Below, one piece after another: positions 13,285-62,574 of a stretch of 64,000 nt of DNA. The translations under genes and the position numbers were made by a program. The DNA is taken from the IMG/VR virus record IMGVR_UViG_3300050035_000086, positions 1 through 64,000 of that record; one strand, 5' to 3'. This DNA comes from a virus. Each line of letters opens with the position of its first letter. Within the stretch, counting starts at the first letter, position 1. The notes beneath the pieces were generated by a model. It did no database searches. It was not told the origin of the DNA and worked only from the letters and a program-made list of their open reading frames with translations.

Positions 13285-13313
13285 ATAATAGCACAAGTCC
13301 ATTATCTGGACAA
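13285..13313 (-). promoter_or_regulatory. Sigma70-like promoter of recombinase remnant overlapped by the 15-bp motif
   Basis: TTGTCC-17 bp-TATTAT with TG extension; motif 13297-13311 covers -35 and spacer. Confidence 0.5.
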
Positions 13314-13326
13314 ACTAAGGACCTAA

Positions 13327-15405
13327 ATGTCAGTTCTCCCTGAACCCGTAATTGATGTTCATCAAGATTTAACTCCAGATGAAGCGCGCGTATTCCTCAA
13401 TACGGGGACATGGGGCGATGACGGAGCTCGAAAACTTGCGGTACAAGATGCCGAAAGAGCCGAGTCTGACGCGCAGAGAAAAAGCTGGATAATGGCCTGG
13501 GTTTCTTCTAGGGACTTGTACGCCAGTATCTACGCCCCTAATTTTTGGCCTGGGACTTCAATCGAGGCATCTTCTGTAAATTTCTTCACCGTAGCGACAG
13601 CTGTAAATGGCATTAACCCCCAACTTCTCGCTGGTTTATTCTACGAGAATCCTCCCTTTATGGTTCAGGAAAGACCCGGAACTTCGGCACAGTGCGCCCG
13701 GGCAGTTTCTGCTCTGCTAGGATATCAACTCGAAGATATCAACTTCCGAGAAGAACTCCGTCTTGGTTTGATGAACTGTCTGCTATTTGGTACAGCCATC
13801 TTCCAGGAGGGGTGGGAAAAATATACCAAGACCCGGAAGATTGTTAAGCGAAAGAACCCGGTTATTAAGATTCCGAGCACGATTCCCGGAGCACCAGAAA
13901 CCTCAATTTCAGACGACGAGTTAGAAGTAGAAGAGATCGAAGAAGTAATCGACAGACCTACTTTTGAGCACATAGTCAATCTTCGGGAAATTCTGGTAGA
14001 CCCAGGTTTGGAAGTTCCGGAGATTCGCAAAGCTAAGTATGTTGTTCGTCGTCGCTACATGACGTGGGACGACATCGATAAGTTGCGCGACCGTGAGGGG
14101 TATGACATTCCGTCCCGCGAGAAAATGCTTGAGTTGTTTCTTCCCCCGAAGGAGCCGGTTGAATCTAATCCTCAACAGGAAGGCGGACGTAATCCTTTGT
14201 GGGACGCGCGCGCGGAATCTCCGTGGGAAGCAACTACAATCGATCCTTTCCAGCAACCTCTGGAAGTCCTCGAACGTTGGGACAACAAAACCCTAATCGT
14301 AGTGATCCAGAAAAAGGTAGTCATCTACAACGGACAGAATGCCTACGGTAAAATCCCGTTCCTGAGCATTGGATGGTGGGATCAGCCTGGAGCTTTCTGG
14401 TCCATCGGATTAGGCCGGTTGATTGGCACCGAGCAACGTGTCCAAGCTGGTATCACGAACCTGATGATGAATATTGCGAACCTGAAGCTGAATGCTCCTA
14501 TGGTTCGCGTAAAAGGAAAGTCGGTCCCGACACAAAGCATCCGAATCGGTCCTAACAAAATGATCGAAGTAGATGCCCAAGGCGATCTACAACCTCTGAA
14601 ATTCGGAGACCCGGTACAAGAAGCCAATCAGCTCTTTGCCATGTCTCAGCAGAGGGTAGATTCGGTGTCGGGGGCCAACCCTATTACGTCTCAGGGAAAC
14701 GCGGGGTCGGCTGGACACTCTAATCTCGCGCGGTCATCTGCCGGGGCCTCTCTTCTCGGACAAGGTGCGTCAAATATCATCTCCGATTGTATTGATAAAC
14801 TGGCTAATCAGGTTTTGGTGCCGTATTTGTATGACATGCAAGAGATGAACTCAATGATGCTGCCGTACAGCCAACTCGATTGGATCATGTCAGAAGAACT
14901 GAAGCATGATTATATAACAGAAGGGGGGGATCTTGTTGAGATACTGAACGCCAAGGTGAAGTTTACAGTATTAGCGGGAGCAAAAATGCAAACACGCCGA
15001 AACATGGCCCAAGGTTTGCCCATGCTTACTCAATTTCTAGCTAATCCTTCCGTTATTGAACAACTTGCCCTAGAGAACAAGAAGGTTGACGTGAACGAGA
15101 TTTGCCGGATGTGGTTTGAGGCTAGTGAATTCAAAAATCAGAACGATGTGATTATTGACATGACTCCTGAAGACCAACAGCGTCAGCAGCAGAAAAGCCA
15201 AAATGGGGCCGCTCAACAGAAGTTCCAGCAGCAGCAAGCTCTTCTTCAGCAGAAGGCTGCGGCAGCGGAGCAACTTGCTGATTCTGAAAATGTCGCGCGC
15301 GCCGCCCGGGACGTACTTCGGGAGGGCTTTAAAAAGTCCGTAGAACCGGAAATGCTTACGGGACAACCTCAAACTAGCGGATCAGGATTTGGTGGAAACC
15401 TCTAG
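13327..15405 (+). CDS. Portal protein
   Basis: 692 aa, position between terminase and scaffold/capsid, typical segments (LLFGTAIF, YGKIPF, FWSIGLG), Q-rich C-terminal helix as in podoviral portals. Confidence 0.8.
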   Translation: MSVLPEPVIDVHQDLTPDEARVFLNTGTWGDDGARKLAVQDAERAESDAQRKSWIMAWVSSRDLYASIYAPNFWPGTSIEASSVNFFTVATAVNGINPQLLAGLFYENPPFMVQERPGTSAQCARAVSALLGYQLEDINFREELRLGLMNCLLFGTAIFQEGWEKYTKTRKIVKRKNPVIKIPSTIPGAPETSISDDELEVEEIEEVIDRPTFEHIVNLREILVDPGLEVPEIRKAKYVVRRRYMTWDDIDKLRDREGYDIPSREKMLELFLPPKEPVESNPQQEGGRNPLWDARAESPWEATTIDPFQQPLEVLERWDNKTLIVVIQKKVVIYNGQNAYGKIPFLSIGWWDQPGAFWSIGLGRLIGTEQRVQAGITNLMMNIANLKLNAPMVRVKGKSVPTQSIRIGPNKMIEVDAQGDLQPLKFGDPVQEANQLFAMSQQRVDSVSGANPITSQGNAGSAGHSNLARSSAGASLLGQGASNIISDCIDKLANQVLVPYLYDMQEMNSMMLPYSQLDWIMSEELKHDYITEGGDLVEILNAKVKFTVLAGAKMQTRRNMAQGLPMLTQFLANPSVIEQLALENKKVDVNEICRMWFEASEFKNQNDVIIDMTPEDQQRQQQKSQNGAAQQKFQQQQALLQQKAAAAEQLADSENVARAARDVLREGFKKSVEPEMLTGQPQTSGSGFGGNL

Positions 15406-15412
15406 AAAACAG

Positions 15413-15441
15413 TTGACATTTCGTAAATGATGTGGTAAACT
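15413..15441 (+). promoter_or_regulatory. Sigma70-type promoter
   Basis: TTGACA-17 bp-TAAACT with TG extension; motif variant 15475 just downstream. Confidence 0.7.
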
Positions 15442-15522
15442 GTACTTGTTGTAAAAACCCACCAAAATTAAACCGTCCAGATAGTGGACTGCTCGCGTTC
15501 TGCGGATTGCAGAAGGAGAACT

Positions 15523-15732: not shown

Positions 15733-16070
15733 CCGATATTGCTTATCCTGACGAACTAGAAAGCAAGATCGACGTATACGAGCGAGGGCGCGTTTTAAGA
15801 ACAGTTCCAGACCAAGCGTGGGACATTATCTTTGATACTGTCCACAGCTACGTAGATAGTATCGACCAACAACACCGGAATTTACCGCCGGGAGATTCTT
15901 CAGTTGTAGCCTCCCACGCGGGCCTCTCGGTCATGAGTCAATTCGAACAGTTCTTCAAGGAAGATCTCGAAAACGCGATGGATTTCGCCGCGCACCCAGA
16001 CGAAGAGTTTACAAAATATCTGAGCGGCTTCCGAGATAGACTTGATGTTTTGAAACAACAGGAGGCGTGA
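15729..16070 (+). CDS. Hypothetical head-region protein
   Basis: RBS GGAGG, overlapping start/stop. Confidence 0.65.
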   Translation: MTDIAYPDELESKIDVYERGRVLRTVPDQAWDIIFDTVHSYVDSIDQQHRNLPPGDSSVVASHAGLSVMSQFEQFFKEDLENAMDFAAHPDEEFTKYLSGFRDRLDVLKQQEA

Positions 16071-16399
16071 TGGGAAATTCCGAGATACGAATATTCCATA
16101 CAAACCTCGAAAACAATGGCACATACCGGGATGTCGTTCTCCTCTCCGATCATCTAGATGAGTTGATAGAGGTTGAGAAATCTCATAAATCGGATTGGAG
16201 TCGGTTAAACAGAGCTTTCAAAATCGCCAGCGACAAAACAATTGACCAAGATATTCGTATTGGCCAGTTGGAAAAAGCGCTAGAATCTTCGCAAACACAG
16301 ATCATGTCTACGCAAGAATTTAGTTTGTACGAGATAAAAAAGCGGGACGAGATAATCAAACAACTACAAAATAGACTTGATGCTTCGTCGTCCAGATAA
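16067..16399 (+). CDS. Hypothetical coiled-coil protein
   Basis: RBS AGGAGG; stop TAA lies inside the motif at 16390. Confidence 0.55.
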   Translation: MMGNSEIRIFHTNLENNGTYRDVVLLSDHLDELIEVEKSHKSDWSRLNRAFKIASDKTIDQDIRIGQLEKALESSQTQIMSTQEFSLYEIKKRDEIIKQLQNRLDASSSR

Positions 16400-16474
16400 T
16401 GGACAATCTGCAAGATAAACTACCCCATTTTTCCTTAACCACCTACCCGTTGATATTGGATTATATCAAGAGGA

Positions 16475-17673: not shown

Positions 17674-20316
17674 ATGAGTTACTCACCAGCATCAATCGTG
17701 ACTTCGGGCGCATTGCCCAACCTCGTAGCTATTCACTAAAATCTTGGTGAATTCAAACTGTTCTAAATCGGCGAAAATCTTCTTGACAAGGTCTGCTAGG
17801 TGTGGTAGACTATAGTTATCGAATAAAGAAAACGCCGAGGAAACCGTGAAAGAGAAAACCAAAAGTTATATGGCTGGGATTCTAGATGCAGAAGGTTGCC
17901 TCCGAATCGCCACCCACAAACGAGGCAACAAAACCTACTACGAACCCAAGGTCTATTTGAGTAACAAATCAAAGGCCGTGATGCAGTGGTCGGTCCTACA
18001 TTTCGGGGGAAGTTTCGTCCGAAATGTAAACAACAAAGCAGGGGAAGATTGGTTCATTTGGTATCTTCAATCATTTCCCACCGTTGTTAGTTTCCTCAAA
18101 ACTATTCTGCCCTACTTGAAGTACAAGAGGGAGCAAGCTGAAACTCTTATTGAGTTCATTGAGAACAGAGAAAATCTGTCCGACAACCAAAAGAACGAGT
18201 ATGTTCTGAAACTCAAAGAGATGAAGCAACACGGGTCCGTAACGACTGAAACGAACAGCAGCTATCTAAAAGCAGAACCAGCATACCTAGCCGGATTCTT
18301 TGATGGCAAAGGTTGTGTTCGGGTCAATAAGACTCCGATGAAAAACACAACCGCCTACCATCTAATTGTATCTATTGCCAACAACGACCGATCTGTTTTA
18401 GATTCTTGTAAAGAACTCTATGGCGGAGATGTCAGAGCCAAAGGGAAAAGAAATTGCTTCTCTTGGAGTTTATTCTCCAAAGCAAGCATTGAAAAATTCC
18501 TCGTGGATAGCCTTCCGTATCTTGTAGTTAAAAGAGACGAGGCGTTGGCGGCACTAGAATACGTTCAACTAAGACGAGCACAATGCCCAGCAAAACGCGA
18601 AGCCTTGTATCTTCGGTTGATAGCTTTAAAGAAGCTGAAGACACAGTCTGAACTGCATAGTGATATGCAGAGCGCCCCAGCAGAGATGCTGACGGCCTAA
18701 AACACACTGATGAACGTGAAGCAATTCCTAACCTGAAGGCACAAACTCCCTTCCTCAGCATGACGAAGCAGCGTCCGCTGCCCCTCCGTCAGGGAAACCA
18801 AATTCAGTGAACAATATTGCTGAATCCAAATCCGGCTATATCGGTGGACAACTCTCTGAGTCAATACCGAGGGAAGACTGGGAAACCAGAACCCGTAGAG
18901 GCTAATACGCCGGACAGTCCATTATTTGGACTGAAGATAGAGTCCGAGCTATGGGGTGACCTATAGAGCGACCTTGTGGTGACGCAAGAGAGGCGAAAGC
19001 CTAGTGACCCGAAAGGGCATTTCCAAAACAAGACTGTCTTCACCTACGCTCTGCTTGCCGCTAACCTTAATCAGGCTGCGGAAGGCACAGTCGGATCTCC
19101 TATCAGTGAATCCAGCAATAAAATTGTCGCGACCATCGGGCAATATGCTGATTTCATTAATAGTTCCGACCTTGCCCTGGACGTTGCAATTGACGACCCG
19201 GGTCTCCTTCAGAACTTGGCAAACGAACTGAACTACCGCTTGGCTCTCACCCTCAACTCCCTCGTCCAGCTTACCGCTGACTCGGCTGTTGCGGTCGATA
19301 GCTTGGTAAACATCCAGCTTGCAAACGGCTCGTATCTGACTGCGAATAACATCCGGTCTGCTGCTCAGTCGCTGGTAAGCGTTAACGCTCGTCCTCTCGT
19401 GGACAACAAATTTGGTGGAATCATTCACCCTAATGTAGTCCGCGACGTGCTGAACGACACCTCCTTTAATGGTCTGACCGACATTATCAAGAGGTCTGAG
19501 GAAATGCGCAACATGCTGTTTGAACTGCCTAAGAATGAGGATACCATCTCGTTCGCCGGGGTCACGTTCAAACAGACATCCACTGCCCCCACTGTAACAA
19601 TCTCCGGAAATACCTATGGACTTGAAAGTCTAGTAGCCTGAAGAAGTAATTCTTCTTGAATCACGTCGCTAATTCGGTGGACATCTCTCAGAGACAATAC
19701 CGAGCCAAACCCAAGAAATTGGGAAGTGTGTAGAGAGCATAGACGACGCTCCTGAAAAGGATGATGATGTGCTCCGGCCTGTATGGCGACATACAGAGAC
19801 TGATAGAAATACTCAGTCCCGTCCAGATACTGGACGAGTAACAAAAGCGTACAATAGTTATATTTTCGGCGATGACGCAATCTTCTCCGTCTTCCTGGGG
19901 AAGAATCCAAACGATGGATCGAAGAACTATCAAATGGTAGCTTAGGGGAGTAATTCCCTTCGAACACACCGCTAATTCAGGGAACAACTCTTCGGAGTCA
20001 ATCCTGAGCGAAGCCCGAAAGGGAACGTGCAGAGGCCATACACGGTGCCCCTCGAAAGAGGGTGATGAGATGGTCCGCTCTATACGGCGACGTATAGAGG
20101 TGGGCGGAACAAGAAACGACCCACCCTTGTCCAAATAATGGACATGTAACACAGAGGAAATTGTTCATACAGTCCGCGCCAGAACAAGGCAGCGTGAGTG
20201 ATCCGGCCCGTCAAATCGGCGGGTGGGTCAGTTACAACGTGAGGTATACCAATACTTTGCGTCCGGGCTCGACAATGACGCTTCGTCGTTTGCAGTCGGA
20301 AACATCATCCAGCTAA
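17674..20316 (+). CDS. Major capsid protein, spliced: join(17674-17737,18710-18808,19037-19617,19850-19930,20158-20316), 327 aa
   Basis: Exons sum to 984 nt in frame: MSYSPASIVTSGALPNLVAIH-Y-EREAIPNLKAQTPFLSMTKQRPLPLRQGNQIQ-F-FTYALL...QYADFINSSD...IIHPNVVRDV...SGNTY-YNSYIFGDDAIFSVFLG...KNY-KLFIQ...DPARQIGGWVSY...SETSSS*; resembles N4-gp56-like capsid proteins; RBS AAAGGAG. Confidence 0.88.
17783..17811 (+). promoter_or_regulatory. Intron-internal sigma70 promoter for the endonuclease ORF
   Basis: TTGACA-17 bp-TAGACT with TG extension, 35 nt upstream of GTG 17846. Confidence 0.7.
17846..18700 (+). CDS. Intron-encoded double-motif LAGLIDADG homing endonuclease/maturase
   Basis: Motifs YMAGILDAEG and YLAGFFDGKG, each followed by 'LPYLxxKREQA/KRDEA' helices. 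Confidence 0.88.
   Translation: MKEKTKSYMAGILDAEGCLRIATHKRGNKTYYEPKVYLSNKSKAVMQWSVLHFGGSFVRNVNNKAGEDWFIWYLQSFPTVVSFLKTILPYLKYKREQAETLIEFIENRENLSDNQKNEYVLKLKEMKQHGSVTTETNSSYLKAEPAYLAGFFDGKGCVRVNKTPMKNTTAYHLIVSIANNDRSVLDSCKELYGGDVRAKGKRNCFSWSLFSKASIEKFLVDSLPYLVVKRDEALAALEYVQLRRAQCPAKREALYLRLIALKKLKTQSELHSDMQSAPAEMLTA
18809..19036 (+). mobile_element. Group I intron 2 (228 nt, ORF-less)
   Basis: P1 ATTCAGT/GCTGAAT U-G; P3 CCGGC/GCCGG; J8/7-P7 GAAGATAGAGTCC; terminal G19036; removal restores QIQ-F-FTY. Confidence 0.88.
19618..19849 (+). mobile_element. Group I intron 3 (232 nt, ORF-less)
   Basis: Exon ends CTAT pairing with GTAG; P3 CGTCG/CGACG; P7 GAGCA/TGCTC; P8 TCCT-gaaa-AGGA; terminal G19849. 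Confidence 0.83.
19931..20157 (+). mobile_element. Group I intron 4 (227 nt, ORF-less)
   Basis: Exon ends CTAT pairing with GTAG; P3 CACCG/CGGTG; P7 GGCCA/TGGTC; P8 CCCTC-gaaa-GAGGG; terminal G20157; similar to intron 3. Confidence 0.83.
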
Positions 20317-22584: not shown

Positions 22585-22740
22585 ATGGCCGCTAAACACC
22601 CCGGCTTCTCTGCCGTTCAAAAGAAAATTCAAGGCTCTGGCTATTCCAAGGAATCGGCTGGGGCTATTTTGGCGTCTGCGACTCGCGGAGCGAGTAAGAA
22701 GGCCAAGACCAAGAATCCGAAACTCAAAAAGGTGAAGTAG
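22585..22740 (+). CDS. Small basic protein (51 aa, not in ORF track)
   Basis: MAAKHPGFSAVQKKIQGSGYSKESAGAILASATRGASKKAKTKNPKLKKVK*. Confidence 0.65.
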   Translation: MAAKHPGFSAVQKKIQGSGYSKESAGAILASATRGASKKAKTKNPKLKKVK

Positions 22741-23060
22741 TGGACCGCATACGAGGAAATATCGAGCACTACAAGATTTGGCTCCGCTCAGAATTTCGAG
22801 AAGGAGTTCTTCGTCCTGATTTTGGAAGGAATTCTGGAAAGACCCAAGCTCTGATTGAACTTGCCCACGAACAGATTCATTCCGGAATGCGGGTAGCTAT
22901 TTTGGCGGGGACTCCCAATCTGTCTTTAACCGTAAGAGATCGGTATATTCGAACCTTCGGAGAAGAGGAAAATATGCCGATTTTTGCGGGACAAGAAAGT
23001 GATCTCAAAGGAAAGATAGTAGACGACATTTTTGATGATCGTCCCGAGTGGTCCAAGTAA
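22740..23060 (+). CDS. Hypothetical protein with P-loop-like motif
   Basis: GRNSGKT. Confidence 0.5.
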   Translation: MDRIRGNIEHYKIWLRSEFREGVLRPDFGRNSGKTQALIELAHEQIHSGMRVAILAGTPNLSLTVRDRYIRTFGEEENMPIFAGQESDLKGKIVDDIFDDRPEWSK

Positions 23061-23281
23061 TGGACCGCCCCCTCAAACTAAAGAAGAAGAGTAGCCAGAT
23101 TCACGAAGGATCGACCTACGACCCGAGTACAGAACGACTGACTACCGTTCTGAATGGCGCGACGGTGGCTTACCACCAAGTTTCTCCCGAAATTATCGCC
23201 GGGTTGGAACAAGCCGATAGTCCCGGGTCGTATTTCCACCAACACATTCGTAACGCGCACAAGAACACCAGAGTTCGTTAG
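23060..23281 (+). CDS. KTSC-domain protein
   Basis: SSQI...YDPSTERL...YHQVSPEIIAGLEQADSPGSYFHQHIR; start ATG inside motif variant 23051. Confidence 0.8.
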   Translation: MDRPLKLKKKSSQIHEGSTYDPSTERLTTVLNGATVAYHQVSPEIIAGLEQADSPGSYFHQHIRNAHKNTRVR

Positions 23282-46225: not shown

Positions 46226-46235
46226 TCTAGCAAAC

Positions 46236-49205: not shown

Positions 49206-49213
49206 TATCTGGA

Positions 49214-52849: not shown

Positions 52850-53221
52850 TTATTTGACGAACACAAGTCCGCCAATGGTTGTGGTAATGTTATACCCTTT
52901 AGGCAATGAAGACTCGTCCAGTTCGGGTTTGGGGGCAAAGTAGATAGCCCCTCCGGTTACGTCCGACACCAGCTTCGAGGTAACCGAATCGATCCTGGAC
53001 AGTAGCTGCTGGAACTGAGGGTCTCTCGTGTCGGGAAACTCGCCCGGGTTTTCTTCGAGCCAACGCCAACAGTTTTCATAGAGGTCTCCGTCATACCAAC
53101 CAGCCGCTGCCCGATTCAGGAACACTTGGCAGACCGCCAGCATTGTCTGGTGGAGTTCTGTCTTGGCGGCGCGCCAACAAGCAAGGGCTACTTGACTCTG
53201 TTTGAAGTCTGTCCCGGTCAC
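52850..53221 (-). CDS. SleB/CwlJ-like cell wall hydrolase homolog, apparently lacking catalytic Glu
   Basis: ALACWRAAKTE...MLAVCQVFLNR...DVTGGAIYF...TIGGLVF. Confidence 0.6.
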   Translation of the reverse strand: MTGTDFKQSQVALACWRAAKTELHQTMLAVCQVFLNRAAAGWYDGDLYENCWRWLEENPGEFPDTRDPQFQQLLSRIDSVTSKLVSDVTGGAIYFAPKPELDESSLPKGYNITTTIGGLVFVK

Positions 53222-53535
53222 TGACCCTCCTGTCCATTATCTGGACTCGGCTCCGTCCAAGGTTCAACTGGTTTCCGTGTGGAAATATCCACCACCGGGG
53301 TCTGCTTGATATCGTACCCAAGCGGAAGGAAGTACATCGCCGCGTGTAGTTGGCAGCAGAAGGACTTCGTAACTCCTCCCTGGTTGAAGATTACTAGGTA
53401 CTGAGCTTCGGAAGGAGCCTGCGCTTTTCCACTTTCAACATCATCCTTACACCATTGTATCCGAAGAGCGGCGTTTTGTCCAGCTTTACATTCTGGATAA
53501 TCACAAATAACTTCGATTGTGTTTCGAATGCCCAT
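53218..53535 (-). CDS. Hypothetical Cys-containing protein
   Basis: RBS GGAGG; CDYPEC...FCCQLH. Confidence 0.55.
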   Translation of the reverse strand: MGIRNTIEVICDYPECKAGQNAALRIQWCKDDVESGKAQAPSEAQYLVIFNQGGVTKSFCCQLHAAMYFLPLGYDIKQTPVVDISTRKPVEPWTEPSPDNGQEGQ

Positions 53536-53543: not shown

Positions 53544-53927
53544 CTAATATTTCTTCCCATTAGCCTTCATCCGGTTCTCCCGCTTGTGGTCTTCGCGAGT
53601 CTTATTGTATTCCAATTTCTCCGCGTAAGCCCCACCCAGGTCCATCCCCAGTCCAGCAGCAATATCAAAGATTCGGATGACGGCGTCAGCAAGCTCTACT
53701 TCAATCATTTTCCGGTGAGGAAGGTGGTCATCCATCAAGTTCTTCCGATGTCCCTCCATCGCCTCGCTAATTTCGCTGTGGACTAGACATAGAAGTTCTC
53801 CCACATTTCGTTCGGTCGGTTTTCCAGTTTCCAAATCTACCCACCACTTTTGATTAATCTCGTGAACTTCCTGGGCGAGATCGTTTATGATCGCTGCTGC
53901 AAACTTTACTTGATAGTCTTCTGACAT
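53544..53927 (-). CDS. MazG-like NTP pyrophosphohydrolase
   Basis: LVHSEISEAMEGHRK...EVELADAVIRIFD...KLEYNKTR. Confidence 0.8.
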   Translation of the reverse strand: MSEDYQVKFAAAIINDLAQEVHEINQKWWVDLETGKPTERNVGELLCLVHSEISEAMEGHRKNLMDDHLPHRKMIEVELADAVIRIFDIAAGLGMDLGGAYAEKLEYNKTREDHKRENRMKANGKKY

Positions 53928-54439
53928 TATTCCACCTCGAAATATTTCTTCAGATTTTTGATCCCGCTATCTACTAGGTTCGCTACCTGTCTGCGGCTGA
54001 TTCCAAAATCTCCGGCGGTCTCTCGCTGTGACTTCCCGTCTACGAACACGTTGTAGATTACTCTGTACTCATCCAAAGGAAGACTATAAATAGCCCCATA
54101 CAATTCTTCGTCTGAGACCTCTGCAACCGGCTGCGGTATCTTCTCAGCTTGGTGCATAATCTTGGGCAAGGAGAGCGACACCAGCCGGGGTCCGGGATCT
54201 TCCTTGGTGCGCTGTGGGTGCTGCCCAGTTCGCCACAAGTCTGTGATCCGGCTTCGGCAAATTCGAGCGGCGTAAGCCTCTCCTTTTCCCTTGTCTATAC
54301 CTTTTTGAACGTGATACTTCTTTTCAAGCAAGGCTACGTAGCACTCCTGGCTCAGGTCTTCCCTCTGATCGGCGGGGATTTTAAGCCGCGAAAGAACTCG
54401 CTCGATTACCGATTTGTATTTAAGAACGTCAATGTCCAT
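53927..54439 (-). CDS. Sigma-70 family (ECF-like) RNA polymerase sigma factor
   Basis: REDLSQECYVALL (region 2), C-terminal HTH GKSQRETAGDFGISRRQVANL (region 4). Confidence 0.75.
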   Translation of the reverse strand: MDIDVLKYKSVIERVLSRLKIPADQREDLSQECYVALLEKKYHVQKGIDKGKGEAYAARICRSRITDLWRTGQHPQRTKEDPGPRLVSLSLPKIMHQAEKIPQPVAEVSDEELYGAIYSLPLDEYRVIYNVFVDGKSQRETAGDFGISRRQVANLVDSGIKNLKKYFEVE

Positions 54440-54440: not shown

Positions 54441-54845
54441 TTATTCCTTGGGACTCAATTTTGCTGTTTGCCATCTTCTGTCTTTGTGTGCCGCATCTGG
54501 CCCCGTTTGATGGCATGACCGGCATAGTGCCTCACAATTTGTTAAACTTACTTCCCCACCAGACCCCTTCGGGACCCTTTCGTTCATCTCACCACTTACC
54601 CAAGTGATTGTTCTTCCACACTTTTCGCACTCGAAGTTTCCAGATAATGGATTCCAACACCTACGGAATACTTGCTTACGAATTCCCCCCACTGCCTCCG
54701 CCTTGGTCATTTCTACCGTGGGGTAGTTCAACCGCTGCTTGTCTCGGAAGATACGAATTGGGAGACCGGTTTCGCCGAGTTCTACGCGGACGGTTTTAGT
54801 CATATCGATAATCCCTTTGTCCCAAGTACGTTCGGATTTCAGCAT
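54441..54845 (-). CDS. HNH-like protein
   Basis: CEKCG...NERVPKGSGG...NCEALCRSCH. Confidence 0.6.
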   Translation of the reverse strand: MLKSERTWDKGIIDMTKTVRVELGETGLPIRIFRDKQRLNYPTVEMTKAEAVGGIRKQVFRRCWNPLSGNFECEKCGRTITWVSGEMNERVPKGSGGEVSLTNCEALCRSCHQTGPDAAHKDRRWQTAKLSPKE

Positions 54846-55172: not shown

Positions 55173-55901
55173 TCAGTTTTTGACATCGCTTAGTTCTCCT
55201 CTCCAAGTTGAAACCGATTCTCGAACTGCCGCTAAGAATACCTGTTTGTGCAACTCATGCTCCGACTCGGACGTGATCTCCAGCACTTGTTTCCCCAACT
55301 TCCAGAACTCGTCTATCTCTTTTCTCTCGTCTGGCGTAGCGTAGAACCCGGGAAGCTCCAACCAAAGCCCAGAGGGAAGCTCGTGGACATGAAGAAGCTC
55401 ATTTACCTTGACCCGAAGCTGGGCTGCTGTTACTTTGGGGCGAAGAGCGTAGTCCATTATCTGGACAGTATAGCATCCGTTTCCATCACCATCTTCATTA
55501 TCCGTATCGTTGATTTCTGCGTGTACGTTTCCGTCGTTCTGGACCAGTCGTCTCAATTCATGAGCTTTAGTAATCCCAATCTCTTCCAACTTGCTCTCAG
55601 AAATATGCGGAAGCAAAACTTCAGCTACAGACAGTATAGCATACAATTGTGACCTACGTCTATCTATTTTTTCGCGAATCGTCTCCAAGTAGGAAGAAAA
55701 CCGGTCAAAACCGTAGGCTATCCAGTACTGCTGTAGCTTTACCTCCCGGAGAAGAGAACCGAGGCGGGCATAGGAATGGGAAAGTCTCTCTTCGTGGGAG
55801 CATATCTGACCGATGAGTGCATCAATTTCCTTTCCTTTTACGAGAGCGTCTTCCTGGTTTAGAGGAGGAAGGTAGGAAGGTATTGTCTGAATTTCGTTCA
55901 T
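55173..55901 (-). CDS. Hypothetical DNA-binding-type protein
   Basis: LGSLLREVK...YGFDRFSSYLE...RRSQLY...IGITKAHEL pattern of phage helical DNA-binding proteins. Confidence 0.5.
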   Translation of the reverse strand: MNEIQTIPSYLPPLNQEDALVKGKEIDALIGQICSHEERLSHSYARLGSLLREVKLQQYWIAYGFDRFSSYLETIREKIDRRRSQLYAILSVAEVLLPHISESKLEEIGITKAHELRRLVQNDGNVHAEINDTDNEDGDGNGCYTVQIMDYALRPKVTAAQLRVKVNELLHVHELPSGLWLELPGFYATPDERKEIDEFWKLGKQVLEITSESEHELHKQVFLAAVRESVSTWRGELSDVKN

Positions 55902-56980
55902 TACTTCGTCTCCTTCTTCCCCGCCATCGGCATTACCAAAGTAGTCATATTTCCGGATTCCAGACGTATCGGCTTGTTCTTGTCTACTAGACCCAAAGTA
56001 GCCTCTTCCCCCGCTTTTGCCAAGAATGCGGACAGATACTTGGCCTTAACCCTCAGATTCGAGACAGTTACCGGCTGAAACAAGGGGTCCGGGTCGATCT
56101 GTTCGTAGGGCGCTTCGTCTGAGGCGGTTGATCCTACTCCAGTATTTCTATATTGTACCACACCTTCGGCGAATTGTAAATCTATTCCTCCTTGATCTAT
56201 AGATTCGTCAATTAAAGTCTCAACCGTACGGAGAGCAGCTACCCACTCCTCCGTCTTGAATCCGAACTTGAGCTTCGAAGGAATTGCCAGAAGCCCGTCA
56301 AAATTCGGGAACGTCTGGGTCGGTTTGGAAGCGAATACGCGGATTCCTCCCGACTGGGCGTACAGGTGCGTATTGGATTCCCCGAGGGAGATCGTACCGT
56401 CCATTATCTGGACTATTGCAGCCGCCGGGAGATTCAACGTCATCTTGAATTCGAACGGGACTGAGTTGCCCACGGTCGCCACGGTAAGCACGTTCGCGTC
56501 TGTCCCCACAATTCGATAGCCGGATGGAGATTCTTCCTCGATACCCAAAGGCAGGCTCTGGAGCAGGACAACACCGCCGAACGCCGAAGCCTTATTAGGA
56601 GACGCCGAAGCAACAGCAATAGACAGGGCCTTCTTGAGATCGACAGAAGCCAGTTCCAGGACCTTGGTAGGAGGCTCGGGAATCTTGAGAGGCTTGATAT
56701 CCTGGATTTCCAATTCGATCTTCGCGCGCGCCGACTTCAGAGACAGGAGCTTCTCTTCCTTGGCGATCTCGACTTGTCCGGACATTCGACCTACGACCTG
56801 AGAAAGCTTCTTTCCGTTGACCGAGAAAGTTCCCCCTAGTCCGGATAATGGACTTTCTGAGACAACCCAAATGTCACTATCCTGGGCGCTTATGCCGTGC
56901 TCTCCGATTTGGTAGAACTCGGTACGAACCGGCGAGAACACCCTAAGACTTTTCTTTAGCTCTGTGGCGACTATGTTCAC
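55901..56980 (-). CDS. dnaN: DNA polymerase III beta sliding clamp-like protein
   Basis: 359 aa; VGTDANVL, FPNFD, KAKYLSAFL, KPIRL...LVMPM. Confidence 0.75.
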   Translation of the reverse strand: MNIVATELKKSLRVFSPVRTEFYQIGEHGISAQDSDIWVVSESPLSGLGGTFSVNGKKLSQVVGRMSGQVEIAKEEKLLSLKSARAKIELEIQDIKPLKIPEPPTKVLELASVDLKKALSIAVASASPNKASAFGGVVLLQSLPLGIEEESPSGYRIVGTDANVLTVATVGNSVPFEFKMTLNLPAAAIVQIMDGTISLGESNTHLYAQSGGIRVFASKPTQTFPNFDGLLAIPSKLKFGFKTEEWVAALRTVETLIDESIDQGGIDLQFAEGVVQYRNTGVGSTASDEAPYEQIDPDPLFQPVTVSNLRVKAKYLSAFLAKAGEEATLGLVDKNKPIRLESGNMTTLVMPMAGKKETK

Positions 56981-57279
56981 TGATTATCCCTTTCATATCT
57001 TGCTTCTTCTAGCCACCCTTCAACCGGCATAGAGAATCGAGTGAGTCGGTCCCTAGATTCGTTGCATAATTCTAAGGCTCGAAATAGAAGATCTCTATCT
57101 GGACTGCCGAGAGATTCTTCTCTGTAGATCATTTTCTGAATCTCAGACAACGGCTTTCCAAATAGGGTGTTCCCAGGGTCGGACATAATCTCTTCTATAA
57201 GTCTTTCGCGTGATCGAAAGCTACCCAGCGATGCGTTGCCCACATTTTCTCGATCTCCTAAATCCTCATTCAAACCCAT
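56977..57279 (-). CDS. Hypothetical protein
   Basis: RBS GAGGAGG. Confidence 0.5.
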   Translation of the reverse strand: MGLNEDLGDRENVGNASLGSFRSRERLIEEIMSDPGNTLFGKPLSEIQKMIYREESLGSPDRDLLFRALELCNESRDRLTRFSMPVEGWLEEARYERDNQ

Positions 57280-58453
57280 TTGGGTCCTCCTCTTCGTGGT
57301 TTGTATCCAACACTTTGGATTGTAACATACTGTCCATCCAATCCGCAATCTTTAAATGCTCCTCGGCGGTGCCGTCGTTTTTGAGCAGGTTTGCGCGATA
57401 CGAAATAACAACAACGTTACCTTTAAAATATCCCAGAGAAGAATCAATTCTGTCGAGAGTCGGCGAATAACTTTCTAGTCGCCCAACCCCTCTCCGCAAA
57501 ATCCAACCGAAAACGGGACATATTCTCGGTATTTGTATATCTTCTTTGGTAAGTTCAAACAACAAATCTCGATCTTTGGCTCTTCTCTTCGCGTTATGGT
57601 ACATACTGACTACAATTTGCTTAACTTCCTTACTAAGCGACAAAAACTCCCCCGAAGGGTGCCCGGAAGACATCCATTCTGAAATTCTTCTGTGTTCCTC
57701 CGCAGTTCCACTATTTTTGATTCGATTAGCTCTATTCGAAATTACAAATATGTTGTCAGGAACGTATCCCATGTTAGGAATAAAGCGATCCAAAGAAGGA
57801 GAATTATCCCCAGAAACCCCCCGCGCGCGGCGAATAGGTATCCCAAGAACTGGACACGTAGCCGGAACTGATATATCATCCTCCGTGATTGAAAAAGGAA
57901 TAAAGAATTTTTCGGCTCTTGTTTTTGCACCATCTACCAACCCCTTCTCTAGGTGCGTGTCTTCGTACACGTCCTGATAAAGTTTCATGTACCTTTTGTG
58001 TTCAGGGGTTTGTTGCCTCTCTCTGTTTCTCTGTTTTGTGGACTCTTTTTGCCTATAATCGCGCTGAGCTTTCTTACTCTGGGGTGTATTTCTGTACGCC
58101 CCTTGATACTCCCGCATGTACTCGATACGGTTTTGAGTCTCTCGGTATTTCTTTTGGCATGTCTTGCAGCTACTGCATTTTCCATCTTCTTTGGTTGTAT
58201 CTCGGCTAAAATTCATTAGCTCTTGGGACTCTCCGCAGGTTCCGCATACTTTAAACAGAGCCTGCCCAAGAGGCGCGGCAAGCAATAGGTTATTTTTCTT
58301 CCTGTTTCTTTCGGCGCGCTCTGCGTCAGATTCTTTTTGGCACTCCTTACATCTTGCTTGCAGTCCATCTTTAGCTTTTCTGTTTTTAGAAAAGCATTCT
58401 ACTTTCTTGGATTTTCCGCAAGTACAACATGATTTTTCTGCTTTTTGGATCAT
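57266..58453 (-). CDS. HNH homing endonuclease with two tandem nuclease domains
   Basis: Two CxxC...CxxC units plus two CPV(L/F)G...SP(S/T)LDR...GY...NxxVISxRANxxKN domains. Confidence 0.8.
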   Translation of the reverse strand: MIQKAEKSCCTCGKSKKVECFSKNRKAKDGLQARCKECQKESDAERAERNRKKNNLLLAAPLGQALFKVCGTCGESQELMNFSRDTTKEDGKCSSCKTCQKKYRETQNRIEYMREYQGAYRNTPQSKKAQRDYRQKESTKQRNRERQQTPEHKRYMKLYQDVYEDTHLEKGLVDGAKTRAEKFFIPFSITEDDISVPATCPVLGIPIRRARGVSGDNSPSLDRFIPNMGYVPDNIFVISNRANRIKNSGTAEEHRRISEWMSSGHPSGEFLSLSKEVKQIVVSMYHNAKRRAKDRDLLFELTKEDIQIPRICPVFGWILRRGVGRLESYSPTLDRIDSSLGYFKGNVVVISYRANLLKNDGTAEEHLKIADWMDSMLQSKVLDTNHEEEDPNGFE

Positions 58454-60551: not shown

Positions 60552-60693
60552 GTCATCTCCTACACTTCCAGTTTGTATCCGTTGTTTTCGGCCCACGTTT
60601 CAAGCTGCTCTGCCGAGAACACATCGTCTGGCTCTAGGTTGTTTTGAATCCAAGACACAGAGTCATCGTTCAGCGCACTACTAAAATCAGGTC

Positions 60694-61272
60694 TCATACT
60701 TCCTCCTCTTTCCTCGGACTAACCAGAATCGCGGTTGAGTAGTCAGGCTCCCAAAGTTGAATCGACTCGTTCGCTTTATTGAACTCCGTCAATGCCGCTT
60801 CGAGTTCTTCGAGACCGTTTAGGTCTGACGTACCGGCATCTTCCCACATGTTGTCCAAAAGATTGCAAGTTACATCTTCCAAATCAACCGTAGGCAAACC
60901 GTGAGTTTTGCAGGCCCAGACATATTCAGGCTCCTGCCCCTCTTCGTACCGGTCGATGGCCTCATCTACAGACTCATAAAATTCATCGCCATCAAGAACG
61001 TGATCTCCGGTATATTCTGCCTCCGTGATCTTGGTGGCCTTCTCAAATCGGTCCCACTCTTTCTTGCTTTCCTTCAGGACCCACTCTTTGTGTTCGCATT
61101 CCTCGCAGACTTTGTAGGAGCCATAACGCTTGATTGTCTTTCCGCAAGCGCACAGACGCTCTCCGTGGCAGAAGTCCGCCTCTTCCTTCGTTCGGGCGAC
61201 TACTTTACACTCCGAACAGTAGAAGATTCCCGCAGTAGTTCCGTCTGCTTTAAAAAGCTCGATTGCTGACAT
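60694..61272 (-). CDS. Hypothetical Cys-rich/acidic protein
   Basis: RBS GAGGAGG; motif copy 61284 directly upstream. Confidence 0.6.
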   Translation of the reverse strand: MSAIELFKADGTTAGIFYCSECKVVARTKEEADFCHGERLCACGKTIKRYGSYKVCEECEHKEWVLKESKKEWDRFEKATKITEAEYTGDHVLDGDEFYESVDEAIDRYEEGQEPEYVWACKTHGLPTVDLEDVTCNLLDNMWEDAGTSDLNGLEELEAALTEFNKANESIQLWEPDYSTAILVSPRKEEEV

Positions 61273-61307
61273 TATTCCTCCTCGTCCATTATCTGGACAC
61301 AAAACAA

Positions 61308-62486
61308 TTATATCACAGCTTTGTCAGTTTCGGACAACAAATCTGCGAGAGGATCGAAGATATTTTCGTCTGCCTGCTTCATCTTCTCTCGCGCTTGCCG
61401 GTCAATCTCGGCTTCTTCTTGGAGTCGTAGGGCGGTCGCGTCTCTCAGGGTCTTGGCTTTTTCGGCTTCCTGCTTCTGCTTCCGAGCGGAGTACGCGAGG
61501 TTGTCCACTATCTGGACAAACTTTCCAGGGGCGTACGACAGGTTTTTGGTATCATTCAGGTCCTGCGTTTCGACCCAGGTTTTGAACGCCGACTTGATTT
61601 CCTCGGCGGTGAACTCTTTCAGCACTTCTGCTAACCGCGCCCGTTGCTTGTCTAAGAAGCATACAAGGCCCCCAGACGCGTAGGAAAGCTCCCGGACTAG
61701 GGAAACTACCTCTGGGTCTTTGGCGGAGGCTTGTAGAGGCGAATCTGACCTCAAACGATCCTCAGCGCTCTTCAGGTATGAGGAAATGGCACCATACGGA
61801 AAGTCGTCTCCTTGATTTTCCTGAATCCACTCTTCAAAGTCACGGGCAACTGCGCCGGTCCCGTGGGCGATACCGAGAGCCTTAACGTCGTCCCAGGTTC
61901 CTTTGTGGCCACCTGCCTTGGCTCCGTACTGCGCTGCAATTTTGGTAAGTTCGTCTTTCAGCTTCATAGTTTCTCCTTGTCCGTTATCTGGATTTTCAAA
62001 ATCTTCTTCAGAGAAAATTTCAGCATCTTGCTCTGAAATGCTCTGCTCTGTATCTGCTCTGCTCTGCTCTGCTATATGGCAAATTGTGGCAAGCTCTGGC
62101 AATTGCTTAGCATTTGCTTGTCGTTCCTTTGTTTTCTTCATTTTAGCCAAAGCTCCTGCTTTTCCTGCTCTGGCCCTCTCGGCTCGTACCGCATCGTCGT
62201 CTGTTCTCTGCTTCTCCAGCTTAGAGTTGACTAGAGAACCATCTTCTTGCTCTTCAAAGAAGACCTTGAGGGACGGCCAGCATTCAGACATAACTTCTAC
62301 TGGGCACCCACAGATGTCTGCAAGCTCCTCTATTTTTGAAGGGATCGACCCTTCACACCACTGCTCATCCAGAAGATCGCGGTAGAGACCTCGGGCTACA
62401 TAGTCCAAACGCTGAACCTTTCGGTTGGCGCGCCAGTCTCTCCACAGCCATTTGAAATAGGGCAGGGGCTCCGTATTTTTTCCCAC
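61308..62486 (-). CDS. Replication initiator protein (DUF1376/YdaU-like N-terminus)
   Basis: LPYFKWLWRDW...ARGLYRDLLDEQWCEGSIP...ELADICG...RARAGKAGA. Confidence 0.75.
   Translation of the reverse strand: MGKNTEPLPYFKWLWRDWRANRKVQRLDYVARGLYRDLLDEQWCEGSIPSKIEELADICGCPVEVMSECWPSLKVFFEEQEDGSLVNSKLEKQRTDDDAVRAERARAGKAGALAKMKKTKERQANAKQLPELATICHIAEQSRADTEQSISEQDAEIFSEEDFENPDNGQGETMKLKDELTKIAAQYGAKAGGHKGTWDDVKALGIAHGTGAVARDFEEWIQENQGDDFPYGAISSYLKSAEDRLRSDSPLQASAKDPEVVSLVRELSYASGGLVCFLDKQRARLAEVLKEFTAEEIKSAFKTWVETQDLNDTKNLSYAPGKFVQIVDNLAYSARKQKQEAEKAKTLRDATALRLQEEAEIDRQAREKMKQADENIFDPLADLLSETDKAVI
62029..62120. repeat. Short tandem repeats inside initiator gene (candidate iteron/origin region)
   Basis: (TGCTC)n run 62029-62073 and GGCAA x3 at 62078-62102. 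Confidence 0.45.
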
Positions 62487-62574
62487 AGATCGTCCCTCCC
62501 ATCGTAAAACGTTATTTCCAGTCGTAAAACAGTATTATACTACCTGTTTCATGGGAATCCATTATCCGGACAGC

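Follow-up and report, generated by a model that had tools for sequence, protein, structure and literature searches.

The window, the whole stretch of 64,000 nucleotides that was analysed, belongs to the 92,952-bp genome of an uncultured soil phage. It carries, among others, genes for a tail-fibre-like protein, the terminase large subunit, the portal protein, a Mom-family protein, a sliding clamp, and DUF1376 and DUF1643 proteins, as well as a split capsid-gene region and a group I intron. A 15-base DNA word, GTCCATTATCTGGAC, is repeated in it, and we recovered this word from the coordinates quoted in a preliminary description of the same DNA. The word is built of GTCCA arms, which form an inverted repeat around an AT-rich TTATC core, and the core is not palindromic.

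The repeated word and its distribution

With no more than 2 mismatches, 37 copies were found in the window against 0.12 expected, and the full genome holds 59. Four complete genomes of the clade hold 59 (this phage), 66, 49 and 77 copies, compared with 0–1 for a reversed-word control, and none was found in two outgroup genomes. The density is about 0.4–0.7 copies per kb at portal identities of at least 65% (0.40–0.52 on portal loci chosen blind to the motif), and portal loci at 57% identity or less had no copy in about 140 kb. The word marks a clade, being found throughout the close relatives of this phage and not in the outgroups. The analysis supports reading the copies as sites of sequence-specific recognition that are under strong selection at the DNA level.

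Each lineage has its own dominant form of the word. Among the three motif-carrying relatives, position 8 is changed from A to T in G003, positions 10–11 from CT to TC in G001, and the outer arm bases are changed jointly in G002 (G1 to T and C15 to A). The joint change in G002 would fit a symmetric reader co-evolving with its sites, and such a symmetric change of the arms in one lineage points to a reader acting as a dimer.

The gaps between copies are even in all four genomes (CV 0.61–0.82 vs. 0.97 at random, p 0.0003–0.04). Co-directional and opposed copies relative to transcription number 165 and 78, about 2:1, so that GATAAT lies on the sense strand in 68% of copies; in the late operon of relatives, co-orientation reaches 86:14, with GATAAT on the sense strand in 86%. 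A DNA function unrelated to transcription would account equally well for the even spacing and for the acceptance of both orientations.

One such function would be a signal for a DNA enzyme, needed at regular intervals, for instance for site-specific nicking or cleavage by an HNH endonuclease, for priming or replication restart, for Chi-like protection or for base modification. We consider this improbable. The even spacing and the tolerated in-gene copies would suit it, the genome encodes many HNH/EndoVII nucleases, of which two are core, along with a T7-type primase-helicase, and the best two-replichore split of orientations falls at 13.5/60 kb, beside the primase and initiator genes (41/59 consistent, permutation p 0.05). 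However, the orientation flip was not reproduced upstream of the portal gene in relatives (33:38), and the exact phasing with Shine–Dalgarno (SD) sequences and stop codons would be left unexplained. Known primase, Chi and nick signals are far shorter or restricted to one of the two strands.

Copies at gene boundaries and within genes

The main association of the word is with gene boundaries, that is, with junctions of stop codon, SD and start codon, and it is statistically dominant over that with promoters. Gene starts were taken from a crude ORF/SD caller built for the analysis. In this phage, 13 copies lie exactly 5' of an SD and start codon, in both orientations, where 0.86 were expected, and 13 copies overlap or abut a stop codon. 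Across the four genomes, SD/start-phased copies number 13, 8, 5 and 17 (fewer than 1 expected in each) and copies at stops 13, 16, 10 and 13 (about 2 expected). Start codons peak at +23 to +29 from the word in either orientation. The preliminary description had ranked these junctions second, behind promoters, and the counts reverse that order; the enrichment itself and the association with ribosome-binding sites and stop codons go beyond chance. The following copies lie at or between gene ends in the window.

1369–1383, − strand: exact; in a spacer, last tRNA gene 85 nt before, gene at 1465 81 nt after
4357–4371, + strand: exact; start-phased, SD at +16, ATG 4384 at +27
8297–8311, − strand: exact; terminase stop 13 nt before; holds a possible ATG (8306) of the next gene
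8957–8971, + strand: 1 mismatch; stop 5 nt before, SD at +15, ATG 8980 at +23
16390–16404, − strand: exact; the TAA within it serves as stop codon for gene 16067–16399
23051–23065, − strand: 2 mismatches; its TAATG provides both the stop of 22740–23060 and the start of 23060–23281
23544–23558, − strand: 2 mismatches (lineage-type TC variant); intergenic, gene 23623 64 nt on
26649–26663, − strand: exact; first G completes the TAG stop of 25954–26649; next start at +53
45312–45326, + strand: 1 mismatch; stop of the 1696-aa gene 8 nt before; in the first codons of 45296–46225
49200–49214, + strand: exact; its own G completes the TAG stop of an exonuclease gene; SD at +18, ATG 49187 at +27
51850–51864, − strand: exact; in the last codons of an EndoVII gene; SD at +15, ATG at +25
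53232–53246, + strand: exact; in the last codons of 53218–53535; SD AGGAGG at +15, GTG at +25
63073–63087, + strand: 1 mismatch; stop 15 nt before; at the very start of the DUF1643 gene

Copies deep within genes make up 36–41% of the total (the 41% compares with a 61% background) and fall in all coding frames; this share tells against the docking-site reading that is favoured below. In-gene copies of the window are listed here with those at introns.

2751–2765, + strand: exact; within the tail-fibre-like gene 2549–4144
7545–7559, + strand: exact; within the terminase large subunit gene, read S-I-I-W-T
18917–18931, + strand: 1 mismatch; within group I intron 18799–18966
19821–19835, − strand: 1 mismatch; non-coding stretch in the split capsid-gene region
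20129–20143, − strand: 1 mismatch; 32 nt 3' of an Rfam group I intron match (19921–20097)
33980–33994, − strand: 2 mismatches; within the 1219-aa gene
36920–36934, − strand: 2 mismatches (A1/T15, both ends changed); within gene 36850–37254, P-D-N-G frame
37326–37340, + strand: 1 mismatch; within gene 37255–38148
40403–40417, − strand: exact; within the 1696-aa gene, P-D-N-G frame
41690–41704, − strand: exact; within the 1696-aa gene, P-D-N-G frame
47236–47250, − strand: 2 mismatches; within gene 47182–47607
50869–50883, − strand: 1 mismatch; within gene 50689–51138
54638–54652, − strand: 2 mismatches; within HNH gene 54441–54845
55452–55466, + strand: exact; within the core 242-aa gene, read V-Q-I-M-D
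56399–56413, + strand: exact; within the sliding-clamp gene; relatives with nucleotide identities as low as 65% still have it
56839–56853, − strand: 1 mismatch; within the sliding-clamp gene
61503–61517, + strand: 1 mismatch; within a DUF1376 gene, relatives keep the same variant
61979–61993, + strand: 2 mismatches; within a DUF1376 gene

Distant relatives keep the terminase peptide S-[IMV]-[IM]-W yet have no copy there; the copy was fitted onto a conserved S-I/M-I/M-W peptide. In the 242-aa gene, the peptide is VQIMD in this phage and VRIMD in G001, the variant of the word that is proper to each lineage giving the residue, and the family column at this residue is divided between Q (20) and R (19). 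This Q/R change, which tracks the lineage variant, shows selection on the DNA word overriding codons.

The placement 5' of the SD also raises the possibility that the word works as RNA, with a 5-bp stem and pentaloop serving to insulate or control translation, to stabilise the mRNA or to mark it for processing; we find this quite improbable. The start-codon peak appears in both orientations and the stem is identical either way, the hairpin is predicted to be stable alone (−4.6 and −5.5 kcal/mol), and the commoner sense loop, GAUAA, resembles boxB-type GNRA-like pentaloops. Against this, the arms are invariant across the clade and show none of the co-variation expected of an RNA stem, whereas a genuine leader hairpin lying 20 nt from the motif keeps its loop while its stem co-varies freely. 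G-U and A-C in the stem stand at 108:75, A-C mismatches thus being common, and SD/start-phased copies are not better paired than others. In one orientation, the G001 and position-11 variants cost the stem a pair, with no added orientation bias, and the many copies deep in genes, with some in introns or after tRNAs, are not what an RNA element would predict.

Copies at promoters and a terminator

The preliminary description had placed eight copies beside promoters, ribosome-binding sites or the central terminator, and all eight site descriptions proved correct. Copies 4357, 8957 and 61284 each directly precede an SD and start codon; the copies near promoters and the terminator, with the elements themselves, are as follows.

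13285–13313, − strand: promoter-like TTGTCC-17-TATTAT, 9/12, TG; heads truncated recombinase ORF 12847–13266
13297–13311, + strand: exact copy; portal ATG 13327 15 nt on; over the −35 and spacer of the preceding element
15413–15441, + strand: sigma-70-type promoter TTGACA-17-TAAACT, 10/12, TG; conserved in relatives L108, L110, L112 and L113
15475–15489, − strand: copy, 1 mismatch; about +27 to +41 of the transcript from that promoter; a GGAUU leader hairpin follows
30409–30438, − strand: sigma-70-type promoter TTGACA-18-TATACT, 11/12; leftward small-ORF and Mom unit
30446–30460, − strand: copy, 1 mismatch; holds the cupin gene ATG 30455; centre about −51 to the Mom promoter
46234–46275, both strands: bidirectional terminator hairpin between convergent gene blocks; T-run on the + strand
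46276–46290, + strand: exact copy; 3 nt past the stop of the last leftward gene (46294–46509); abuts the hairpin
61284–61298, + strand: exact copy; DUF1376 gene stop 9 nt before; SD at +16, ATG 61272
61307–61315, − strand: extended −10 TGATATAAT; sets copy 61284 at about +1 to +15
62557–62571, + strand: copy, 2 mismatches; DUF1643 gene stop 3 nt before; GTG 62486 70 nt on

The copy at 13297 supplies 4 of the 6 −35 bases and most of the spacer of the leftward element, which lies upstream of an SD and the ATG at 13266. The name "recombinase remnant" given to ORF 12847–13266 is right, because over its first 126 residues it matches a XerC-like tyrosine recombinase in that protein's N-terminal half (PDB 4a8e, E 2e-7). 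The copy at 15475 lies 34 nt past the −10 of its promoter. This promoter after the portal gene is the one that is conserved across relatives; those that carry it there lack the motif, and those that carry the motif lack it. The copy at 30446 is separated by 7 nt from the −35 of the leftward promoter, on its upstream side, and the gene behind that promoter belongs to the Mom family (PF25680, E 1e-30). At 62557, a TATAAT (62539 to 62534) follows after 17 nt upstream of a DUF1376/primosomal-like gene, the supposed replication initiator; the implied −35 (ATGGAT) is poor and the site is not among the promoter-scan matches. The copy at 46276 abuts a strong bidirectional hairpin, as described.

Copy 61284 lies 8 nt after TGaTATAAT (61315 to 61307). 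Together with copies 78292 and 88465, it lies at about +1 to +15 behind a TGnTAnnnT extended −10, in a single orientation, and two of these three placements are conserved in orthologous loci. This arrangement, in which the element ends 7–8 nt upstream of the motif, involves only about four independent loci.

A general association with promoters did not hold: the window has 63 sigma-70-like matches against 54.6 in shuffled sequence, which is chance level, and several matches are built from the word's own GATAAT or TGGACA. This chance-level count weighs against a docking site that acts on transcription. The word has no fixed position relative to promoter elements, differing at each claimed promoter, and no conserved flank was found in any subset of copies. 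The proposal that some copies are true operators is supported in part, by 13297 over a −35 and a few copies at transcript starts. Few copies occupy the position of a classical operator. The preliminary description also had in-gene copies as elongation roadblocks or looping sites, which are putative roles.

The word might instead be a promoter, or part of one, for a phage ECF-like sigma factor, with the GATAAT orientation driving middle or late transcription. A sigma-like protein is encoded at 53927–54439 and is core to the motif-bearing clade, GATAAT prevails on the sense strand, above all in the relatives' late operon, and the post-portal junction of relatives carries either a sigma-70 promoter or the motif. 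We nevertheless believe this to be very unlikely. A 15-bp word is too short for a −35/−10 pair and no partner element was found in any subset, one copy in three would direct antisense transcription, initiation some 7 nt past GATAAT would land inside the abutting SD, and the symmetric two-arm change in G002 is unlike DNA reading by a sigma factor. The co-occurrence of sigma factor and motif is uninformative, because the outgroup lacks the whole replication arm.

Candidate readers and a docking-site model

A master repressor had been expected, and no helix-turn-helix (HTH) repressor was found among about 90 proteins scanned (Pfam/PHROGs). In the core set, no sequence-specific DNA binder other than the sigma-like factor was recognisable. 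Control of DNA modification, also suggested earlier, is not a family trait, because the Mom cassette is absent from the three motif-carrying relatives; Mom itself is excluded as the reader by the same absence. A tyrosine integrase is conserved in the clade, so that a lysogenic repressor is conceivable; the portal relatives, which number more than 358 and are all metagenomic, on contigs of at most 113 kb, gave no positive evidence of lysogeny.

The reader could also be a genome organiser like ParB, Noc or KorB, in the form of a dimer on dispersed near-palindromes that compacts, positions or silences the phage chromosome and affects transcription secondarily. The even spacing in four genomes, the tolerance of coding DNA and both orientations, and the symmetric arms, altered symmetrically in G002, agree with this. 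The core 242-aa protein, whose family was not recognised, resembles the DNA-binding domains of ParB/Spo0J/KorB in structure, weakly but repeatedly (4umk, Foldseek E 0.38; 6s6h, Z 6.7, rmsd 7.5 over 132 residues; 1vz0, Z 6.3; 1r71, Z 5.0), with scores below the tool's meaningful level for helical proteins. However, neither sequence-profile support nor a ParB Pfam domain was found and we saw no ParA partner, the site has a non-palindromic core, and neither a 2:1 bias with transcription nor a position at promoter starts is expected of such sites. We regard this explanation as unlikely.

In P1 (C1 operators), phiC31 (conserved inverted repeats), RK2 (KorB OB), Bacillus subtilis (Noc) and Cluster O phages (17-bp palindromes), one protein serves many replicon-wide sites. 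The sites are near-palindromic in several of these systems, as here; they are almost all intergenic, number about 10–70 per replicon, and their binding protein is identified. We know of none that is routinely overprinted on coding sequence or doubles as stop or start codons.

Studies have shown that Cluster A mycobacteriophages carry tens of 13–15-bp stoperators at about 0.5–0.7 per kb in both genome arms, many where very little DNA separates two genes and some in promoters, with a consensus that shifts by lineage (PMC9283540, PMC6550527). The word resembles this operator/stoperator network of the L5 gp71-type immunity repressor in density, lineage variation and orientation bias. Stoperators are nearly all co-directional and lose function on reversal, whereas this word is about 68% co-oriented, a proportion that counts against a stoperator-like docking reading. 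They are read by a monomer with HTH and stoperator domains, whereas the inverted-repeat arms here suggest a dimer; moreover, 41% of copies here lie deep in coding sequence, in all frames, and no cognate repressor was found among the roughly 90 proteins. Cluster K mycobacteriophages have the SAS/ESAS, a short phage-specific repeat within a few bases of start codons, sometimes including the upstream stop codon, which is conserved across subclusters and has no known function (PMC3203893). The word is similar in being a phage-specific repeat near starts that sometimes includes a stop codon. The SAS contains the SD, has essentially one orientation and occurs on the non-structural arm only, whereas this word lies 5' of the SD, in both orientations and on both arms, with half of its copies not start-associated.

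The explanation that we favour, although we hold it at somewhat less than an even chance, is that the word serves as a docking site, on double-stranded DNA, for a single clade-specific and sequence-specific DNA-binding protein, probably phage-encoded and of two-fold symmetry, that would act on transcription. The prevailing co-orientation with genes and the extended −10 elements ahead of about four loci are what link the word to transcription. One GTCCA arm would be bound per subunit, and the TTATC core may be read asymmetrically or through DNA shape. Each genome would keep about 50–77 such putative sites evenly spaced. Because the genomes are tightly packed, sites would be placed at least cost, in stop-to-SD gaps or tolerant protein segments, and we infer that the cheapest positions are also those where they act best. 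At the handful of sites that overlap a promoter or transcript start, the bound protein would be operator-like. At boundaries and within genes, it may be a roadblock or insulator against read-through RNA polymerase, and such a roadblock would shield the next gene's ribosome-binding site from read-through transcription.

A dispersed word and its lineage variants

The eight coordinates quoted in the preliminary description all give one 15-bp word, GTCCATTATCTGGAC, and each of these placements matched its description on re-reading. The word is composed of 5-bp inverted arms, GTCCA and TGGAC, flanking the non-palindromic core TTATC. With at most two mismatches, 37 copies were found in the window, compared with 0.12 expected from shuffles. 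The window makes up the first 64 kb of one 92,952-bp record, and 59 copies were counted over this whole record.

This record is that of a tailed phage, with genes for terminase, portal and a tail-fibre-like protein. It also encodes a T7-type primase-helicase, DNA polymerase, clamp and clamp loader, a RecT-like protein, RtcB, several HNH/EndoVII nucleases and a tyrosine integrase, and contains a tRNA cluster and group I introns. The genes, whose starts are approximate calls of our own ORF-plus-SD caller, run rightward up to 46.2 kb and leftward beyond. The central terminator was confirmed as a strong hairpin (46234-46275) with a T-run, and copy 46276 begins directly after it. A megablast search of 20 kb against GenBank phages gave no match. 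The combined load of HNH/EndoVII nucleases and self-splicing elements is unusually heavy; the helicase gene is split with an HNH gene between its parts, and the portal gene of some relatives is interrupted by a LAGLIDADG insert.

Nucleases, introns and repeats in the record
Window 47770-48357, minus strand, HNH/EndoVII nuclease
Window 51836-52534, minus strand, HNH/EndoVII nuclease
Window 54441-54845, minus strand, HNH/EndoVII nuclease
Window 57266-58453, minus strand, HNH/EndoVII nuclease
Genome 69296-69871, minus strand, HNH/EndoVII nuclease
Window 18799-18966, plus strand, group I intron in the capsid-gene region, confirmed with Rfam
Window 19921-20097, plus strand, group I intron in the capsid-gene region, confirmed with Rfam
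Genome 92750-92952, tandem repeats of about 27 nt (GGTGTTGGTGGCTGCGCTTCGGT...) that close the contig at its right end, perhaps from repetitive coding DNA or from the end of the assembly

When viral contigs were scanned for the exact word, many proved to carry multiple copies. Ascertainment bias was avoided by retrieving 49 loci by their portal protein. Loci with at least 65% portal identity, hereafter the clade, contained 0.40-0.52 copies per kb, and at 57% identity or less neither the word nor any alternative dispersed word was found in about 140 kb. When three complete relatives of 92-110 kb (G001, G002 and G003) were searched as whole records, our consensus gave 42, 37 and 57 matches, and their own consensus gave 66, 49 and 77, respectively. 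Two outgroup records had zero copies, and the reversed-word control gave 0-1. The dominant variants were GTCCATTATTCGGAC in G001, TTCCATTATCTGGAA in G002 and GTCCATTTTCTGGAC in G003, making four lineage variants in all, and additional ones appear in partial contigs. In the G002 variant both arms are altered together.

Copies persist at orthologous positions or junctions, also where their flanks cannot be aligned, with occasional turnover of exact position or orientation, and in all four genomes they are more evenly spaced than at random. One copy lies inside the gene of a core 242-aa protein and encodes V-Q-I-M-D in this phage; in G001 the peptide is V-R-I-M-D, and each comes from the variant of its own lineage. 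The family column at that residue is Q 20 : R 19. Selection acts directly on the DNA word. A role at recombination or cassette boundaries was rejected, as breakpoints of nucleotide homology were about equally common at junctions with (41%) and without (40%) the motif.

The tyrosine integrase is kept across the clade, and lysogeny is possible. More than 358 portal relatives were found, all metagenomic, on contigs of up to about 113 kb, none within a contig of bacterial size. A scan of bacterial genomes for prophage or host copies gave chance single matches only (about 1,100 expected in 596 Gb). The 13 copies in an archaeal locus (L214, 2099-4321) were attributed to chance mimicry by an unrelated tandem protein repeat, ...VQIIDVTDP..., of a Nitrosopumilaceae MAG; this repeat is a false positive for motif scans.

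Placement at gene boundaries and in coding DNA

Gene boundaries are the dominant theme of placement. Positions were counted in the direction of transcription, the word occupying 0-14. Approximately 16 copies of the genome are followed by an SD beginning at +15/16 and a start codon at +23 to +29, equally in both orientations. Under a positional null, the strict SD-plus-start criterion was satisfied by 13 copies (0.86 expected, p 3e-12), and a long-ORF stop lay at -7 to +9 of 13 copies (1.9 expected, p 5e-8). Start or stop association was seen for 22 of the 59 copies, compared with 2.75 expected, and the start-phased copies were divided 6:7 by orientation. The word itself supplies some of the signals: its first G completes a TAG stop at copies 26649 and 49200, its internal TAA is the stop codon at copy 16390, TAATG in copy 23051 is an overlapping stop and start, and the ATG at +9 of copy 30446 is a start codon. 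The same peaks were found in 365 distinct copies pooled from relatives, with starts at +23 to +29 in both orientations and stops at -2 (both orientations), +7 and -6. In the three further complete genomes, phased starts numbered 8, 5 and 17, and stops 16, 10 and 13, respectively. The preferred location of the sites is the minimal intergenic spacer.

Of the 59 copies, 24 lie deep in genes, at least 40 codons from either gene end (background 61%), and in-gene copies span all five open frames. A group I intron and the spacer 3' of the tRNA cluster also contain copies. Coding DNA tolerates the word well.

The sense strand reads GTCCAGATAATGGAC in 37:22, 45:19, 31:13 and 52:24 copies of the four genomes, 165:78 (68%) overall. 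In relatives the ratio is 86:14 in the late operon and 38:33 upstream of portal. Coding convenience was rejected as the whole cause of this bias and explains only part of it, because the ratio is about 60:40 both within genes and at junctions. A reading by replication polarity is marginally consistent with this genome (p 0.05), and the relatives do not bear it out.

Promoters, RNA structure and the candidate reader

The preliminary description had interpreted some copies as operators of a master repressor lying on promoters. At the four promoters concerned, the word was located at about -33 to -19 (over the -35 and spacer), +27 to +41, -58 to -44 and -44 to -30, respectively. The word thus lacks the fixed position relative to -35 and -10 of a classical promoter-overlapping operator; only about four loci share the position +1 to +15. 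At these independent loci the word, invariably in GATAA sense, follows the end of an extended -10 (TGnTAnnnT) at a distance of 7-8 nt. We consider them a small, genuine subset, and to this extent the operator interpretation is partly supported.

Loci with an extended -10 upstream of the word
61284
78292 (ortholog in L050)
88465 (ortholog in L033)
A locus in L009

Promoters are not the dominant theme of word placement. No conservation was found beyond the 15 bp, overall or in subsets by orientation or distance to the next start, and no promoter element lay at a constant distance from the word; a hidden partner element was ruled out, since nothing outside the 15 bp is kept in any orientation or position subset. 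Sigma-70-like matches numbered 63 in the window and 54.6 in shuffles, and at least seven of the matches next to a copy arise from the word's own GATAAT (-10-like) or TGGACA (-35-like). Annotators should be cautious, as this mimicry produces spurious promoter calls. The right arm of the genome had more matches than shuffles (25 vs 13.7 and 16 vs 6.6). Conservation in four relatives (L108, L110, L112 and L113) makes the promoter 3' of the portal gene convincing; these four lack the word at that junction, and relatives with the word there lack the promoter.

Several genes named in the preliminary description were borne out. The "recombinase remnant" is a truncated XerC-like tyrosine recombinase with the N-terminal half only; its residues 7-126 match the N-terminal half of an XerC-like recombinase (PDB 4a8e, E 2e-7), it starts at an ATG (13266) with an SD of its own, and past residue 126 its open frame extends, in antisense, into the 3' end of a 1301-aa gene. 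The "replication initiator" is a DUF1376/primosomal-like protein. The "mom-like" gene belongs to the Mom family (PF25680, E 1e-30), and a near-consensus promoter and a 58-codon ORF lie ahead of it. This leftward unit is missing from the three related genomes and is therefore probably a recently acquired cassette. Mom was rejected as reader or modifier of the word, as it is missing from three motif-bearing relatives.

Units beside copies of the word
12847-13266, minus strand, truncated XerC-like tyrosine recombinase
29590-30438, minus strand, sole leftward unit inside the rightward late block, with promoter, 58-codon hydrophobic ORF (about 30215-30391) and Mom-family gene

The word could also act in RNA, as a boxB-like hairpin or translational operator. 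Once transcribed, it is predicted to form a stable small hairpin (-4.6 and -5.5 kcal/mol), and a stem would account for the orientation-independent phasing. However, the arm sequence is invariant throughout the clade without compensatory change. The ratio of G·U to A·C is 108:75, so that A·C mismatches are common, and phased copies are no better paired; G001 and position-11 variants break pair 5-11 in one orientation, yet orientation is unskewed. A leader hairpin 20 bases from copy 15475 behaves differently, with a GGAUU loop that is kept and a stem that co-varies freely (CTGC/GCAG here; AAGTGA/TCACTT, ATCGT/ACGAT, ACGT/ACGT and TCAATC/GATTGA in relatives). A freely co-varying stem with a fixed loop is what RNA selection looks like in this phage family, and we regard an RNA element at the word as unlikely. 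The leader hairpin itself has the look of an RNA control element, such as a translational operator.

Leader hairpin
15497-15509, plus strand, GGAUU hairpin directly 5' of the SD of the gene after portal (orthologs in L121, L091, L117, L128 and L132)

We searched for the reader, that is, the postulated protein that binds the word. The HTH repressor expected by the preliminary description was not found by profile searches among about 90 proteins, a method that small repressors can escape. Two genes with operator-like copies, a 192-aa gene (60694-61272) and a 78-aa gene (88210-88446), were rejected as autoregulated readers because they are not core; in a protein atlas the 192-aa protein matched only hypothetical viral clusters. 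The core set contains a single recognisable sequence-specific DNA-binding protein, a 170-aa ECF-like sigma factor (Sigma70_r2 E 3.6e-5, r4 E 1.1e-4, phrog_1740 E 1.5e-10). With such a factor present, scans for the sigma-70 consensus may overlook much of the transcription in this phage. That the word is the promoter of this factor is very unlikely: the two arms changed symmetrically in G002, no partner element stands beside the word, and antisense copies exist. The clade-specificity of sigma factor and integrase was discarded as a clue, because the outgroup records also lack DNA polymerase and initiator.

Core proteins considered
53927-54439, minus strand, 170-aa ECF-like sigma factor
55173-55901, minus strand, 242-aa protein without a Pfam family

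The 242-aa protein is confined to the clade, with 147 homologues. Its predicted model is confident (mean pLDDT 84) and weakly similar to the DNA-binding domains of ParB, Spo0J and KorB (Foldseek E 0.38; VIA Z 5.0-6.7, which is unremarkable for helical models), and a sequence-profile search gave no ParB-type support. From this model we consider it a candidate reader, a lead and nothing more. Docking of a genome-organiser protein of the ParB/KorB/Noc type at the word is rather unlikely; of the traits of ParB-type sites, palindromy is seen in the arms of the word but not in its core, and the likeness of the 242-aa protein is weak. We give a similarly low chance to the word being a recognition signal for a DNA enzyme. 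Likenesses of the word to the Fis 15-bp consensus, the Fur GATAAT unit and the DnaA box were judged too degenerate or incomplete.

Comparison with known site networks and proposed function

It is established that the word forms a clade-wide array of DNA sites that are individually conserved, evenly spaced and co-evolving by lineage. We infer that a putative reader recognises them by their arms, and largely symmetrically. In the most economical mechanism, one phage-encoded dimeric protein docks at the sites and affects transcription. A site just 5' of an SD would halt read-through polymerase before the ribosome-binding site of the next gene is transcribed, and a few sites would serve as true operators.

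The array resembles the stoperator/operator network of Cluster A phages in having more than 20 scattered copies of one short site genome-wide (59 in 92,952 bp here, 49-77 in three relatives) and a consensus that shifts by lineage (four variants here). Cluster A stoperators have one predominant orientation to transcription and lose function when reversed (PMC9283540). In contrast, only 68% of copies (165:78) are co-oriented here, and start-phased ones are divided 6:7. Cluster A sites occupy promoters and short intergenic spaces; here, 22/59 copies are at a start or stop and 24/59 deep in genes. The Cluster A site is asymmetric and bound by a monomeric phage repressor with an HTH and a stoperator domain; the word combines an asymmetric core with symmetric arms. 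A temperate life cycle, a further trait of the Cluster A network, may apply to the present clade, in which the integrase is conserved. The proposed mechanism would work like that of the Cluster A network, of which we do not consider the array a member, because of its orientation and, in part, its location. The start-associated sequence of Cluster K phages contains the SD core, lies 3-7 bp before the start and is used in one orientation in the non-structural arm only. Unlike it, our word does not contain the SD, which begins at +15/16, and is used in both orientations and both arms.

A more speculative reading, to which we assign little probability, is that the word is the address label of an undescribed phage "chromatin". 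A new clade-specific DNA-binding protein would dock about every 1.5 kb regardless of coding content, and the sites would double as gene-boundary punctuation (stops, starts and pre-SD spacer), so that phage proteins would be forced to evolve around them. The only lead to such a protein, a weak one, is the core 242-aa protein.

Networks of one dispersed word are known in a few cultured phage groups, as the basis of immunity and whole-genome silencing. A network of this kind is now found among uncultured environmental phages, in a large clade with genomes of approximately 90-110 kb. It adds near-palindromic arms with an asymmetric core, an exact fit into stop/SD/start junctions in either orientation, and overprinting strong enough for an amino-acid switch (Q/R) with the lineage's word. 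This provides a clean, testable case in which DNA-level selection overrides protein sequence, and the site variants set against the core proteins offer a built-in co-variation signal for finding the reader computationally.
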